From a virus (Duplodnaviria; Heunggongvirae; Uroviricota; Caudoviricetes): a stretch of DNA of 20,341 nucleotides. The stretch spans positions 1-20,341 of IMG/VR virus record IMGVR_UViG_2617270976_000004; one strand, 5' to 3'. How positions within the stretch are numbered: position 1 is the stretch's first letter; the number at the start of each line of letters is the position of its first letter. The position numbers were made by a program. Of this stretch, positions 3,001 through 6,000 are shown in pieces.

Positions 3001-6000
3001 TCTTCAGCCCGGTGAACATGGATATCCGCTATCTCAGTACACCGTTTGACTGCGCATGGGTTGATCTCGCAAAAGATATGATGCGCGTGGTGACAGGAGA
3101 CAAAATGTCAGTGCTTGCCGGGGGCTCTCTGCCGTCCACGATAAGGTGGCATTCAAAAATTTTTTCATTGCCTGAAAGAACCTCTTTTTCCTGTATCAGG
3201 GTGAAATCTCCAGCACCTGAGCGGGTGGGGATCACCGTTATGGCTGATGATGTTCCTGTTATTCATTTTGCGCCGGGTACGTTTAAGGGAAGTGTGGTGA
3301 GACTTCCGGCAGCAACCGGGCAAAACTGGCAGGTGATGGTATCCGGATTTGGGCAGGTGGAACGAATAACCCTGAGTACATCGATGTCGGAGTTACCGAT
3401 ATGAGCAAAAAACCGTGGCGGGCGGGGAAGGATTTATCCGCTGTTGTGGAAAATATGGAAATTGGCACCGGGCAGCGTGGCGACGGTCGTCATGCTTTTG
3501 TGACCCGTGAAGAGCTGGTTGGCCTTAAACTTGCCCGACGTCGTACACAGGGTGGTGCGGGTACCTCATATGCACTGAATCCAGGAGTTGACATTGACAG
3601 CACCTTAATGGCTGTTGATTTTCCCACAAAACCACTGAATTTTAAGGCGACCGGAGGATTTGGTTCAGTTCTTCTGGAATGGGATGTGGCCAATTATCGG
3701 GGGCATTCACTGACAGAAATCTGGCGGGGAACGAAGGACGACCTTTCAGATGCTGTGCTGGTTGCCACGACACCGGGGCAGGTTTATGGTGATCCGGTTG
3801 ACCCGGGCTGGTCGGGATTTTACTGGATACGCTTTGTCAATGCAGCGGGAGTGAAGGGGCCGTGGCACGCAGTGGCAGGCGTGGCAGCACAGACACAGAT
3901 ATCAGTTCAGGCGGTGATTGACCAGATAAAAGAAGAGGCGGCGAAGTCTCCCGTCATAGAAGAGCTTCGCAAGGAAATAAAAAACGCGCAGGGGCAGGCT
4001 GTAAAGGATGCGGCAATTAAGACAACCGAAGTTGTGGGGGCTCTCAGGGAGGAAACGACAAGAACGATTGGTGGTATTGAAACCCGCATAACCACACTGG
4101 ATTCGTCAACCAGTGAATCGCTTAATGAGGTCGACAAGCGCATCACTAAACTGGATAAAGAAGGCGGTGAGGCCTTCCTTGCGATGTGGTCAAAAAAAGC
4201 GGGAGTTGATGGCATCACTGCGGGGATCGGGATTGTCGCCGGAAAAGACAGTGAAGGCAGGCCTGTAAGTCAGGTTGCAATTTCTGCGTCACAGCTGTTT
4301 GTCTTTGACCCGAATAATCCGGATAACACCGCCTATCCGTTTGCGGTATCAGGTGGCAAGGTAGTGATCCCGAAAGCGATGATTTATGACGCGGTGATTG
4401 AAACACTGGTGTCGCGGAAGGTTGTGGCGGATGAGGTAAAAGCCGGGGTAAGTATCACTTCGCCAGTTATCCGGAGTGCCGTTATTCAGAACGGAAACTT
4501 TCAGGTTGATTCTCAGGGTAACCTGAATATTGGAGGCCTTTTCAGTGTTACGTCACAAGGGCAACTGACAATTCGTTACTCTAATCAGAATGTAGGACTG
4601 GTGATCCGCAATGATAAAATTGAGGTTTATGATCAGAATGGACGACTGGCTGTTCGCATAGGCAGATTACGCTGATCAGGAGGTGAGTATTGGAATACGG
4701 TTTTGCCATTTATAACAGAAATAACGTTAATGTTACGGGCGTGCTTACTCCCATATTTTTCCTGGACAGGTTTACGGCGGAGTCGGGATCAAAAACGTAT
4801 ACGAATAAACCAGAAGGGAAAACATTGCAGGCAGTCTGTTCATTATTTCCGTGGAATAATGTATTTAAGGACCGGAAAGTACCGAAGATAACCATTAATG
4901 GCAATACGGTGATGTGGTCAAATCTTGAGCAGGGGATGGGGTCATATATTTATACATTCTGGGGGTGAGTTGTATGTATGGTTTAAGCATTACGAAACCA
5001 GATGGCAGCTTGTGGATAAGCCCGGGGTTTACGCCTCAGTGTCTGATCAATAAGGGAACTATTCCGGCGACTGAGAAGGCTTTTTTTAAAACGTCAATTC
5101 CGTCAGGAAAAAGTTGTTTTTTCTTTATCAGAACAGAGAAGAAGGCCGATGTCATGTACACGCATGAACAGATTGATGGATATCATGCCTTAAGGCTTCA
5201 TCAAATTGTCAGGGGAACGAATCCTGGTGTTACGACTGTTTATGCTTTTGCGAATATGGTTACTCAACCTTCTGAGTATGGTATCGCCATGTATAATCCG
5301 TTGGGTGAGATGATTTACCATGGCGAAATGATGCTGCTTGACGCGAAGTTAATACCTGTTGATATCAAATTTGAAAAGGACCTTGGATATCCATGCGCAA
5401 TTATGCCTGCACTGGTCGGGTATTATAACTGGAAAAGAACTCCTTATGATCGACCGATTTATACCACATCCACTGGCGCTACAGGAAATAAAATATATTC
5501 CTGTGAGCATTATTCAGGTGGTGCAACATGGGATATTCGAAAGCCTTATGTAGACAAAGTTCTTGTTATTAATACTTCAATGTATGATTAGCACAATAAA
5601 ATTTATCAATCATTTTAAGAAAAATTTTTATTTTTTATTTCCAGGCAGGATGGTAAATAATCAAAAATGTGGAAAGGACAGAGAGAACAATGTTTTTAAT
5701 ATAGGAAGATTCTTAAAATGAAAAGTATCACAAAATTTCTTGTGTGCGCAACTCTGGGCTTAGGTGGATTAACTGCACAGGCACATGCTGCATCTGGTGA
5801 TAGTACCGTATCCCTTGGATTCGCTCACCTTCAGCTATCCGGGCTGAATAATTTTGTTAAGGATTTAAGTCTTCATAACCTTGATACCTTTAACAATTTT
5901 GTGAATGAAAACTATTTCAATTCACCTGGAGAATATGACGATGCGTTTGTCCGGGGCCATGATGGTAAAGAGAAAAGTCCCTTGGGAATGAACATTAAGT

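Follow-up and report, generated by a model that had tools for sequence, protein, structure and literature searches.

A conserved two-gene cassette beside the tail needle gene of a short-tailed Stx-type phage: a candidate split receptor-binding tip complex

In the late region of a Stx-type phage with a short tail (Sepvirinae, Oslovirus-like lineage), two small genes, ORF1 and ORF2, lie between the gene of the central tail needle and that of a Lom/Ail-family outer-membrane protein. We consider it rather likely that the two products form a two-piece receptor-binding cap at the tip of the needle, probably directed against BamA. In our analysis of this 20,341-nt stretch of DNA (hereafter the window), the proposal is based on homology to a family of receptor-binding proteins (RBPs), on the existence of gene fusions, on synteny with central fiber genes and on models predicting soluble all-β proteins. 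A needle-tip RBP role has already been proposed for near-identical genes in work published in 2025–2026 (bioRxiv 10.64898/2026.04.10.717836; PMC12309495). Our analysis mostly corrects an earlier note on this DNA: rather than the new defense cargo envisaged there, the block is a late structural module that is conserved.

Gene organization of the needle–lom interval

The nozzle gene, the needle gene, the 92-aa ORF, the 205-aa ORF and lom follow each other in the order found in annotated relatives, and positions 3400–6500 are 91.6–93.6% identical (92–94% when rounded) to the Sepvirinae phages GER2 and Lyz12581Vzw. The two genes are closely tied to that of the needle: ORF1 starts with a TTG codon 14 nt past the needle stop codon, behind a Shine–Dalgarno sequence (Table 1), and a scan from the needle gene to ORF2 detected neither a promoter-like site on the + strand nor a terminator-like site. 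A terminator-like hairpin (6478–6498) follows lom. For ORF2, a GTG codon at 4965 offers an alternative start, which would yield a 208-aa protein and a 4-nt overlap with ORF1. However, all ORF2 homologs begin with M-[YFH]-G, which makes ATG 4974 the real start (205 aa) and leaves 5 nt between ORF1 and ORF2. Thus, both ORFs of the earlier note, with 92 and about 205 aa, are real, but they do not overlap. A 52-aa ORF at 5563–5721 is probably spurious, and its translation contains no lipobox. Rfam gave no match in the whole window.

Table 1. Features of the needle–lom interval (positions in the window)
Feature	Position	Strand	Evidence or remark
Central tail needle / J-like central fiber gene, 424 aa	3401..4675	+	Pfam Phage_Tail_Tip, E 1.9e-11; phrog_496 / phrog_31 'central tail fiber J'
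AGGAGG Shine–Dalgarno	4678..4683	+	6 nt 5' of the ORF1 TTG, just past the needle stop codon; sequence read directly
ORF1, 92 aa, predicted soluble all-β; counterpart of Sp5 ORF72 / phi24B gp55	4690..4968	+	phrog_557
Motif copy 1, EYGFAIYNRNN, ORF1 aa 2–12	4693..4725	+	
ORF2, 205 aa, predicted soluble all-β; counterpart of Sp5 ORF73 / phi24B gp54	4974..5591	+	phrog_425
Motif copy 2, MYGLSITKPDG, ORF2 aa 1–11	4974..5006	+	
Motif copy 3, EYGIAMYNPLGE, ORF2 aa 101–112	5274..5309	+	Short β-hairpin in the model
Most variable part of ORF2, aa 151–195, long hairpin; candidate receptor-contact region	5424..5558	+	Column entropy
Very AT-rich spacer, ORF2 to lom	5592..5717	.	23.8% GC
Lom/Ail-family outer-membrane protein gene	5718..6455	+	Pfam Ail_Lom, E 3.9e-30; signal peptide MKSITKFLVCATLGLGGLTAQAHA

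The GC content is 41.2% for ORF1 and 40.6% for ORF2 (40.8% for the pair) versus 51.0% for the nozzle gene and 51.0% for the needle gene. The pair is indeed more AT-rich than these tail genes, as first noticed, but the AT-rich tract is wider than the pair: it extends from the 3' end of the needle gene through the spacer and lom (41.9%), where it ends. In unrelated phages, the pair has a GC content of 37–40%, 3–5 points below that of the neighboring genes. The low GC goes with the mobile cassette: in all of the phage backbones that we examined, the cassette is AT-rich.

Distribution of the pair and its fused forms

The same two genes occupy the same position between needle and lom in phi24B (gp55/gp54), Sp5 (ORF72/ORF73, ECs1234/ECs1235) and other Stx phages. 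The phi24B and Sp5 pairs show no substantive difference from that of the window, which belongs to an Oslovirus-like lineage with GER2 and Lyz12581Vzw. ORF2 is 99.5% identical to its GER2 counterpart and about 96% identical to those of Sakai (Sp5), phi24B, PA2, POCJ13 and many other Stx phages. The earlier statement that no known family is recognizable holds for Pfam and NCBIfam, which returned no match for either protein, but not for PHROGs, where ORF1 is a full-length member of phrog_557 (E 8.5e-34, residues 1–92) and ORF2 of phrog_425 (E 3.4e-79, residues 1–205). No PDB entry was matched by sequence, whether the query was one of the proteins alone or one of two family profiles.

Beyond the Stx phages, the two-gene cassette is found in virulent siphoviruses, namely Warwickvirus (tonijn, SECphi27, JLBYU01/26), Nonagvirus (JenP1, JenP2, BRET) and Dhillonvirus JLBYU60, where ORF2 is 41–47% and ORF1 54–64% identical to the window proteins; the latter range includes the ORF1 orthologs within the RBP loci of tonijn and JenP2. 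In these phages, the cassette adjoins the central fiber gene, and it and the J-like gene are convergent; tonijn has a lipoprotein gene in front of the cassette. The pair also lies beside the central fiber gene, directly after pb4, in the T5-like phage DU_PP_V. In the window, it directly adjoins the J-like central fiber gene, which is the position of the RBP locus described with BASEL (PMC8594841). The needle C-terminus ends in ...IEVYDQNGRLAVRIGRLR, and a similar C-terminal motif is present in the central fibers of tonijn, JenP2 and DU_PP_V, all three of which carry the cassette. We propose that the needle is the docking partner of the pair. The products of the Warwickvirus, Nonagvirus and Dhillonvirus pair have been described as 'Ig-like' and 'hand-like' proteins (PMC12309495). 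The literature mentioning SECphi27 or phage 9g contained no receptor information for the cassette. We also considered the unmatched RBP allele reported with BASEL for JenK1, HdK1 and HdsG1; these three phages are absent among the matches listed, and we claim no link.

Proteins of about 320 aa combine an ORF1-like domain and an ORF2-like body in a single chain. When compared with hhalign, the ORF1 family matches the N-terminal domain of these fusions with a probability of 95.6% (E 1.1e-8, 73 columns). Among the phages of Pectobacterium and Pantoea, the split form alternates with the fused one, and in Pantoea phage Vid5 the fused gene abuts the gene for 'central tail fiber J'. The models of ORF2 (pLDDT 89) and of a fusion protein (pLDDT 85) are predicted soluble β-sandwiches. 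As is typical of RBPs, ORF2 combines conserved segments (N-terminal, middle-motif and C-terminal) with a variable one (aa 151–195). More specifically, this region has the highest column entropy of the family (3.34 bits), accommodates insertions after residues 159, 177 and 186–187, and is the part in which the subgroups of alignment A1 diverge; it is a candidate for the region that contacts the receptor.

Relationship with the LptD-binding RBP family

ORF2 shares a fold with chain C of PDB entry 9RPT, the solved structure of the LptD-RBP family of small siphoviruses (Oekolampad RBP, Rtp44). At the profile level, hhalign aligned the LptD-RBP family with the ORF2 family over 74 columns with a score of 45.1 (E 1.2e-5), to be compared with 14.8 ± 2.5 (maximum 22.1) for column-shuffled controls, and the segment of motif copy 3 aligns with residues 212–240 of the Oekolampad RBP. 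This signal was obtained with the broader ORF2 alignment only: the fusion family alone gave none against the Oekolampad RBP or the LptD-RBP family (E 0.6–0.7). Foldseek, queried with the ORF2 model, missed 9rpt (best E 0.026, all TM values below 0.3). Because sequence identity is only 8–10% and the profile–profile signal is limited to 74 columns, we regard the pair as a distant relative of the LptD-RBP family and not as a member of it.

The two systems differ in several respects. The RBP of Oekolampad (Bas18) is a single chain of 321 aa, whereas the window encodes two proteins of 92 and 205 aa; the Oekolampad RBP binds LptD, whereas the pair presumably binds BamA; an exclusion lipoprotein goes with the Oekolampad RBP but is lacking in the window; and Oekolampad is a long-tailed siphovirus, whereas the window phage is a podovirus. 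The 321-aa RBP occupies the same slot, with the lipoprotein gene upstream, just as gp18 of tonijn precedes its pair.

A repeated YG motif

The three motif copies pointed out by the earlier note, EYGFAIYNRNN in ORF1 and MYGLSITKPDG and EYGIAMYNPLGE in ORF2, are all present in the sequence. They had been taken as a sign that ORF2 is a tandem duplication of the ORF1 domain. Pairwise alignment was not significant: BLASTP of the repeat units retrieved an 8-residue core only (E 0.04), and the N-terminal and C-terminal halves of ORF2 did not match each other. The family profiles, however, do align: hhalign scores were 31.0 (E 6.7e-6, 29 columns) for the two halves of ORF2, 21.7 (47 columns) for ORF1 versus the N-terminal half and 22.7 (23 columns) for ORF1 versus the C-terminal half. 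About 60 column-shuffled profiles were used as controls per comparison; their highest scores were 12.1, 18.7 and 17.8, and none of them reached the real scores. A shallow-profile comparison (A2 versus A1) was suggestive only. With a motif HMM of the ORF2 family run against 885 sequences, all ORF1 orthologs ranked right after the ORF2 proteins (E 0.008–0.03), and noise started at E 0.86. The C-terminal hairpin of the needle was considered as a further copy of the motif and rejected (E 4.6, not significant).

The shared element spans about 25–47 columns at the start of each unit. Judged from these profiles, the repeat is real and above chance, but is a short N-terminal hairpin segment. The strand patterns predicted past this segment differ between the units, and a duplication of the whole domain is therefore not demonstrated; what is left of the initial suggestion is the short element. 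Motif copy 2 falls within the N-terminal 20 residues of the ORF2 monomer model, which are of low confidence, and residues 1–30 are among the most conserved of the family (entropy 2.35 bits). Residues 101–125, which include strands 105–107 and 113–116 in the model, are also conserved (2.24 bits). The hairpin motif is found once in ORF1, twice in ORF2 and three times in the single chain of the fused homologs.

A model of the needle tip and its alternatives

We propose that ORF1 and ORF2 encode late proteins associated with the virion, which would jointly cap the distal end of the trimeric central tail needle, as a split, two-polypeptide version of the single-chain RBPs encoded beside the J-like gene in the RBP locus of small siphoviruses. 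ORF2 would be the receptor-binding body, with a conserved core and attachment elements, and its variable hairpin region (aa 151–195) would contact the extracellular loops of an outer-membrane β-barrel. ORF1, the equivalent of the N-terminal domain in the fusions, would most likely help to attach the complex to the needle tip. BamA would be the most likely ligand, because short-tailed Stx phages use BamA and ORF2 is about 96% identical to the Sp5 and phi24B copies. Binding would then lead to needle release and DNA ejection. The binding of the pair to BamA, the adaptor role of ORF1 and this triggering step are inferred.

The same logic, a receptor-binding unit that sits at the tip of a trimeric central fiber and recognizes an outer-membrane barrel, applies to T5 pb5 and to lambda gpJ's C-terminal domain, which are classical terminal RBPs of central fibers (also PMC8594841). 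However, pb5 is a single protein of far greater size, the domain of gpJ is joined covalently to the fiber as a part of it, and no sequence or fold match was detected between either of them and the pair.

Published data on related phages bear on the model in both directions. In phi24B, the needle counterpart gp56 is a trimeric needle anchored in the nozzle, extra, unassigned density is seen at the needle tip, and gp54, the ORF2 counterpart, was detected in purified virions at low abundance, gp55 being undetected (bioRxiv 10.64898/2026.04.10.717836). [quoted passage not shown] On the other hand, the solved homolog of ORF2 binds LptD and not BamA, which counts against BamA as the ligand. The main counter-evidence to a tip RBP comes from Sp5: the in-frame deletions of ORF72 and of ORF73 do not belong to the nine mutants that could no longer form plaques on K-12 MG1655 or lysogenize it, so that neither protein is individually essential for K-12 infection (PMC5155283).

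The latter observation would be accommodated if the pair were an accessory module on the needle tip, serving another or secondary receptor or merely widening the host range (e.g. to hosts that have O-antigen or divergent BamA loops), with primary recognition on K-12 left to the needle or the lateral fibers. In Sp5, the lateral fiber ORF67, the nozzle ORF70 and the needle ORF71 are essential while the two deletion mutants infect K-12 (PMC5155283), and both the low abundance of gp54 in virions and the different barrel bound by the solved homolog point the same way. We nevertheless hold such an arrangement to be unlikely: the plain β-prism surface of the needle has been argued to be unlikely to bind the BamA loops (bioRxiv 10.64898/2026.04.10.717836), and the homologous locus of small siphoviruses predicts the terminal receptor without exception (PMC8594841).

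A tentative extension of the receptor-binding cap, which we also rate as improbable, concerns the three YG hairpins. They might act as pseudo-threefold docking elements by which one asymmetric RBP unit caps all three identical C-termini of the needle trimer, so that the 3:1 symmetry mismatch is resolved; the cassette might then be a BamA-specific allele of the RBP locus, and the Sp5 cap might be required conditionally, for instance on hosts other than rough K-12. In the literature, the Stx-phage allele goes with BamA use. The receptor is FhuA for JLBYU60, whereas Warwickviruses with a 44–47% identical allele do not use FhuA alone (PMC10373560). If this extension were true, the virulent Warwickvirus and JenP-type Nonagvirus phages with a 41–47% identical allele would also use BamA, an essential protein.

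It is quite unlikely, in our opinion, that the two proteins are assembly factors or chaperones of the needle or tail tip that are left out of the finished virion. A slot right after a fiber gene is typical of tail-fiber assembly genes, gp55 was not found in virions, and a structural or chaperone-like role has been named as a possibility (PMC12309495); but gp54 is present in purified virions, the needle tip carries additional density, and an essential needle combined with a dispensable pair (PMC5155283) is hard to square with an obligatory chaperone. Moreover, the match in fold and in profile is to a mature RBP, which as a free protein binds its receptor (PMC12685063).

The earlier note regarded the pair as candidate cor-type genes with a novel exclusion or defense function. 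Moron cargo conferring superinfection exclusion or anti-phage defense on the lysogen would agree with the AT-rich composition, the proximity of lom, a gene of the lysogenic-conversion type, the category of phrog_425 in PHROGs ('moron, auxiliary metabolic gene and host takeover') and the dispensability of the pair for Sp5 growth (PMC5155283). This is very improbable given the following: (i) neither protein, with N-termini MEYGFAIYNRNN for ORF1 and MYGLSITKPDGS for ORF2, has a signal peptide, a lipobox or a membrane helix, and the maximum Kyte–Doolittle mean over 19 residues is 0.83 for both, versus 1.28 for Lom, which has a signal peptide; (ii) PADLOC returned no family at E ≤ 0.01 for either protein; (iii) the genes have no promoter-like site of their own and are tied to the needle gene; (iv) T1-like, T5-like and Nonagvirus phages, which are strictly virulent, also carry the pair; (v) ORF2 is homologous to an RBP. 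The likeness with Cor, Llp and Rtp45 is one of neighborhood only: they are encoded beside RBP or J genes but are exported lipoproteins, whereas ORF1 and ORF2 lack an export signal and do not resemble them. T1-like and Dhillonvirus loci contain, just upstream of the RBP genes, a separate small gene for a lipoprotein, and the Rtp lipoprotein, Rtp45, is a solved exclusion factor (PMC12685063). Cognate exclusion proteins might be encoded with RBPs, although this is not said of every locus (PMC8594841); beside the pair, where lom is the sole neighbor and the 52-aa ORF has no lipobox, we found no such lipoprotein. The notion of host-interaction proteins survives in a broad sense, and the two proteins belong together and exist as fusions.

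Finally, taking the database annotation at face value, as host-envelope proteins of which one resides in the outer membrane and the other is membrane-associated, is hardly tenable, since the product names in RefSeq records and PHROGs seem to have been copied from one entry to the next, the proteins have no export signal or hydrophobic segment, their models are soluble β-sandwiches, and the membrane affinity computed for the phi24B homolog is low compared to that of Lom (PMC12309495).

Significance

Our analysis ties the pair, by fold and profile, to a solved RBP that acts on another essential barrel, LptD. It also sets the non-essentiality of both genes in Sp5 (PMC5155283) against the RBP proposal; the Sp5 study goes unmentioned in the preprint on phi24B (bioRxiv 10.64898/2026.04.10.717836). 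BamA recognition by short-tailed Stx phages governs the spread of stx between enterobacteria, and the gene pair is the leading candidate for the BamA-recognizing virion protein of these phages.

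Gene order and composition of the locus

Region 3400–6500 of the window matches 186 phage records, almost all of them short-tailed Stx-converting phages, with 91.6–93.6% identity to Sepvirinae phages (GER2, Lyz12581Vzw). Annotated relatives share a common order, namely lateral fibre, nozzle, J-like needle, a 92-aa gene (ORF1), a 205-aa gene (ORF2), lom, several small genes and an LPD5-domain giant protein (~2,800 aa). Both ORFs reported in the earlier note exist: ORF1 starts with a TTG lying 6 nt past an AGGAGG site and 14 nt past the needle stop codon, and the start of ORF2 is most likely ATG 4974, because M-[YFH]-G opens all homologues. 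With this start the two genes would be adjacent, with a 5-nt gap, and would not overlap as had been claimed. Around 4677–4698, the window agrees with primer sequences from the Sp5 supplement, which identifies ORF1 and ORF2 as the counterparts of Sp5 ORF72 and ORF73. Since they are 96–99.5% identical to described genes previously proposed as the Stx-phage receptor-binding protein (RBP), the pair is already known.

Features of the window and of related loci
Feature	Record	Coordinates	Annotation	Counterparts
Lateral-fibre C-terminus	window	14–550	collagen repeats, Peptidase_S74 intramolecular chaperone domain	
Next ORF	window	591–1148	Gp38_N domain (phrog_1121 'tail fiber adhesin')	
Nozzle	window	1779–3404		Sp5 ORF70, phi24B gp57
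Needle	window	3401–4675	Pfam Phage_Tail_Tip; phrog 'central tail fiber J'	Sp5 ORF71, phi24B gp56
ORF1	window	4690–4968		Sp5 ORF72 (ECs1234, 92 aa)
ORF2	window	4974–5591		Sp5 ORF73 (ECs1235, 205 aa)
T7 run in ORF2	window	5081–5087	Phe codons of KAFFK	
T6 run in ORF2	window	5117–5122	Phe codons of invariant CFFF	
Spacer before lom	window	5592–5717	126 bp, 23.8% GC	
Lom/Ail	window	5718–6455		
Gap 3' of lom	window	6456–6884		
Terminator-like hairpin	window	6478–6498	in the gap 3' of lom	
Giant protein, 2,783 aa	window	9323–17674		
Four consecutive ORFs, 161–187 aa	window, minus strand	17749–20137		
V[YK]DxNGxLxVxIGR ending	window	4620–4675		
V[YK]DxNGxLxVxIGR ending	tonijn (L003)	5645–5720		
V[YK]DxNGxLxVxIGR ending	JenP2 (L005)	5650–5725		
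V[YK]DxNGxLxVxIGR ending	DU_PP_V (L004)	4660–4720		
Unannotated 94-aa gene	DU_PP_V (L004)	4717–5001		
Lipoprotein gp18	tonijn (L003)	4452–4727	lipobox LTGC	
Lipoprotein bas18_0026	Oekolampad (L009)	21622–21843	lipobox LSGC	

The pair is indeed AT-rich, as had been noticed (40.8% GC, versus 51.0% for both nozzle and needle), and the AT-rich tract continues through lom. The cassette is at 37–40% GC in tonijn, JenP2 and DU_PP_V too, consistently a few points under the neighbouring genes; low GC therefore belongs to the cassette itself, in keeping with a module that moves horizontally. Upstream of lom, the spacer is extremely AT-rich, and a simple scan of its + strand found no sigma-70-like promoter. 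The T7 and T6 runs of ORF2, a putative RBP gene, are possible polymerase-slippage sites; a 2025 preprint describes tracts of this kind as contingency loci of phages and reports that, of the BASEL genera, Warwickvirus has the highest average density of them.

Elsewhere in the window, the lateral-fibre end carrying Peptidase_S74 is followed by the Gp38_N ORF, so that a self-cleaving chaperone adjoins a T-even-type adhesin module in a podovirus. In Lyz12581Vzw, a 'MokW-like host killing' CDS is annotated in the gap corresponding to that 3' of lom; Rfam gave no hok/sok-type RNA in the window. For the four minus-strand ORFs that follow the giant protein gene, the only matches were to PHROGs of unknown function; PADLOC models gave none.

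A single unit with a recurring N-terminal segment

In a subset of relatives of about 307–326 aa, the ORF2 profile match begins only at about residue 100, and homology to ORF1 covers the first 95 residues (probability 95.6%, E 1.1e-8). Gp23 of Pantoea phage Vid5 is one of these fusions, adjoining a gene annotated 'central tail fiber J'; in related Pectobacterium phages, the form is sometimes fused and sometimes split. By these comparisons, ORF1 and ORF2 are taken to be parts of one unit.

All three copies of the reported YG motif (EYGFAIYNRNN in ORF1, MYGLSITKPDG at the ORF2 start and a third at ORF2 residues 101–112) are present. Pairwise BLASTP of the repeat units gave only an eight-residue match (E 0.04) and did not align the ORF2 halves with each other. 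A search of 1.84 billion representatives yielded 113 clusters, and the family alignments made from these were compared with hhalign: the ORF2 N-half matched the C-half over 29 columns (score 31.0, E 6.7e-6), and ORF1 matched the N-half over 47 columns (score 21.7) and the C-half over 23 columns (score 22.7). Column-shuffled controls, about 60 per comparison, reached maxima of 12.1, 18.7 and 17.8, respectively, all below the real scores. In predicted models, a small hairpin opens each unit and the downstream strand patterns are unlike between units. The recurring element is thus real but is a short N-terminal segment: the earlier note's idea of a shared element is borne out for that segment only, and tandem duplication of a whole domain is unproven, the later strands being different. 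In the ORF2 family, the motif segments (residues 1–30 and 101–125) and the last ten C-terminal residues are the most conserved, and residues 151–195, with insertions and deletions, the most variable.

Relation to the LptD-binding RBP of Oekolampad

We built an LptD-RBP profile from the RBP of the Oekolampad (Bas18) locus and a diverse set of ten relatives (Rtp44 family). This profile matched the ORF2 family over 74 columns (Oekolampad residues 163–242, ORF2 residues 49–131; score 45.1, E 1.2e-5), compared to 14.8 +/- 2.5 (maximum 22.1) for shuffled controls. No profile signal was seen when the fusion family by itself was compared with the LptD-RBP family, Foldseek did not recover the Oekolampad RBP structure (9RPT), and sequence searches of the PDB gave no match.

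The locus designs also correspond: Oekolampad has a lipoprotein gene and a 321-aa RBP gene convergent to J, and tonijn a lipoprotein gene (gp18), an ORF1-like and an ORF2-like gene convergent to J. The Oekolampad RBP structure was solved on LptDE, and in phage Rtp the neighbouring lipoprotein, Rtp45, was shown to be the exclusion factor (PMC12685063); RBP alleles in 'bona fide RBP loci' beside gpJ homologues predict the terminal receptor (Maffei et al., PMC8594841). As small lipoproteins encoded just upstream of RBP genes, tonijn gp18 and Oekolampad bas18_0026 are probable superinfection-exclusion factors. The window lacks an equivalent lipoprotein gene and has lom instead.

Association with central fibre genes

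The unit accompanies central fibre genes over unrelated phage backbones. In tonijn (Warwickvirus), gp17 and gp16 are convergent to the J-like gp15; in JenP2 (Nonagvirus), the pair lies between the central and lateral fibre genes; in the T5-like DU_PP_V, an unannotated ORF1-like gene (94 aa) and an ORF2 homologue (222 aa) directly follow pb4. An ORF2 homologue is also found in more than 100 Klebsiella T1-like phages, and many cassette-bearing phages are strictly virulent. The DU_PP_V 94-aa gene overlaps both the pb4 end and the start of the ORF2 homologue, and its protein sequence is similar to the fusions' ORF1-like N-domain. Phage records of ~108 kb (CMS-2020a, Cyrano, PhiR41_1) contain the cassette as well, as do records that bear the label 'Campylobacter phage'. 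Among the latter, at least A131, whose sequence was included in the LptD-RBP family set, is classified as T1-like Drexlerviridae.

Central fibres beside the cassette have a similar C-terminal ending, V[YK]DxNGxLxVxIGR, in four phage groups, possibly a docking site for a cap. A formal comparison of the needle ending with the YG motif gave no significant match (E 4.6).

A candidate needle-tip cap

ORF1 and ORF2 both lack a signal peptide, a lipobox and hydrophobic segments. Both proteins are thus predicted to be soluble, and there is no basis for the inherited names 'outer membrane protein' and 'membrane associated protein', a conclusion also reached in PMC12309495. There, Matusiak et al. modelled the phi24B pair as 'Ig-like' and 'hand-like' proteins on the spike tip and against BamA. 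A phi24B cryo-EM preprint (bioRxiv 10.64898/2026.04.10.717836) reports low-abundance gp54 in the virion proteome, where gp55 was not detected, an extra asymmetric needle-tip density of a size compatible with a gp54–gp55 heterodimer, and ejected particles without needle. Purified BamA neutralised seven short-tailed EHEC phages (PMC12502783).

We therefore favour, with moderate confidence, a needle-tip cap in which ORF2 binds a barrel of the outer membrane, BamA being the most probable one. The present analysis showed homology, fusion, synteny and solubility; virion presence, tip density and the BamA receptor come from the literature. Translation of the pair would follow that of the needle on the late transcript, and the two proteins would associate with each other, given that they are fused in relatives. 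Together they would sit on the needle trimer as a cap over its distal beta-prism, attached via the conserved N-terminal hairpins, the middle motif and the C-terminal strand, so that the variable hairpin region of ORF2 would face extracellular loops of the barrel; receptor engagement would then lead to needle loss and DNA release. By inference, BamA would be the ligand of the pair, ORF1 would serve as an adaptor and receptor engagement would act as the trigger.

Our confidence goes no further because of deletion data in Sp5. Mondal et al. (PMC5155283) made in-frame single deletions of ORF72 and ORF73; the nine genes required for plaques or lysogenisation on K-12 MG1655 comprise neither of them but do include those for the nozzle, needle, lateral fibre and giant protein. 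Such dispensability speaks for the main rival explanation, rather unlikely in our view, in which the pair is an accessory module of the tip without being what primarily binds BamA on K-12. The exclusion or defence cargo of the cor type proposed in the earlier note found no support: the genes match already described Stx-phage RBP candidates, and they do not amount to a novel system for exclusion or defence.

What the analysis adds is modest: single-chain fusions of the two proteins exist, a conserved hairpin motif recurs at the start of each unit, and the receptor-binding proposal is in explicit conflict with the Sp5 deletion phenotypes, which the phi24B preprint does not mention.
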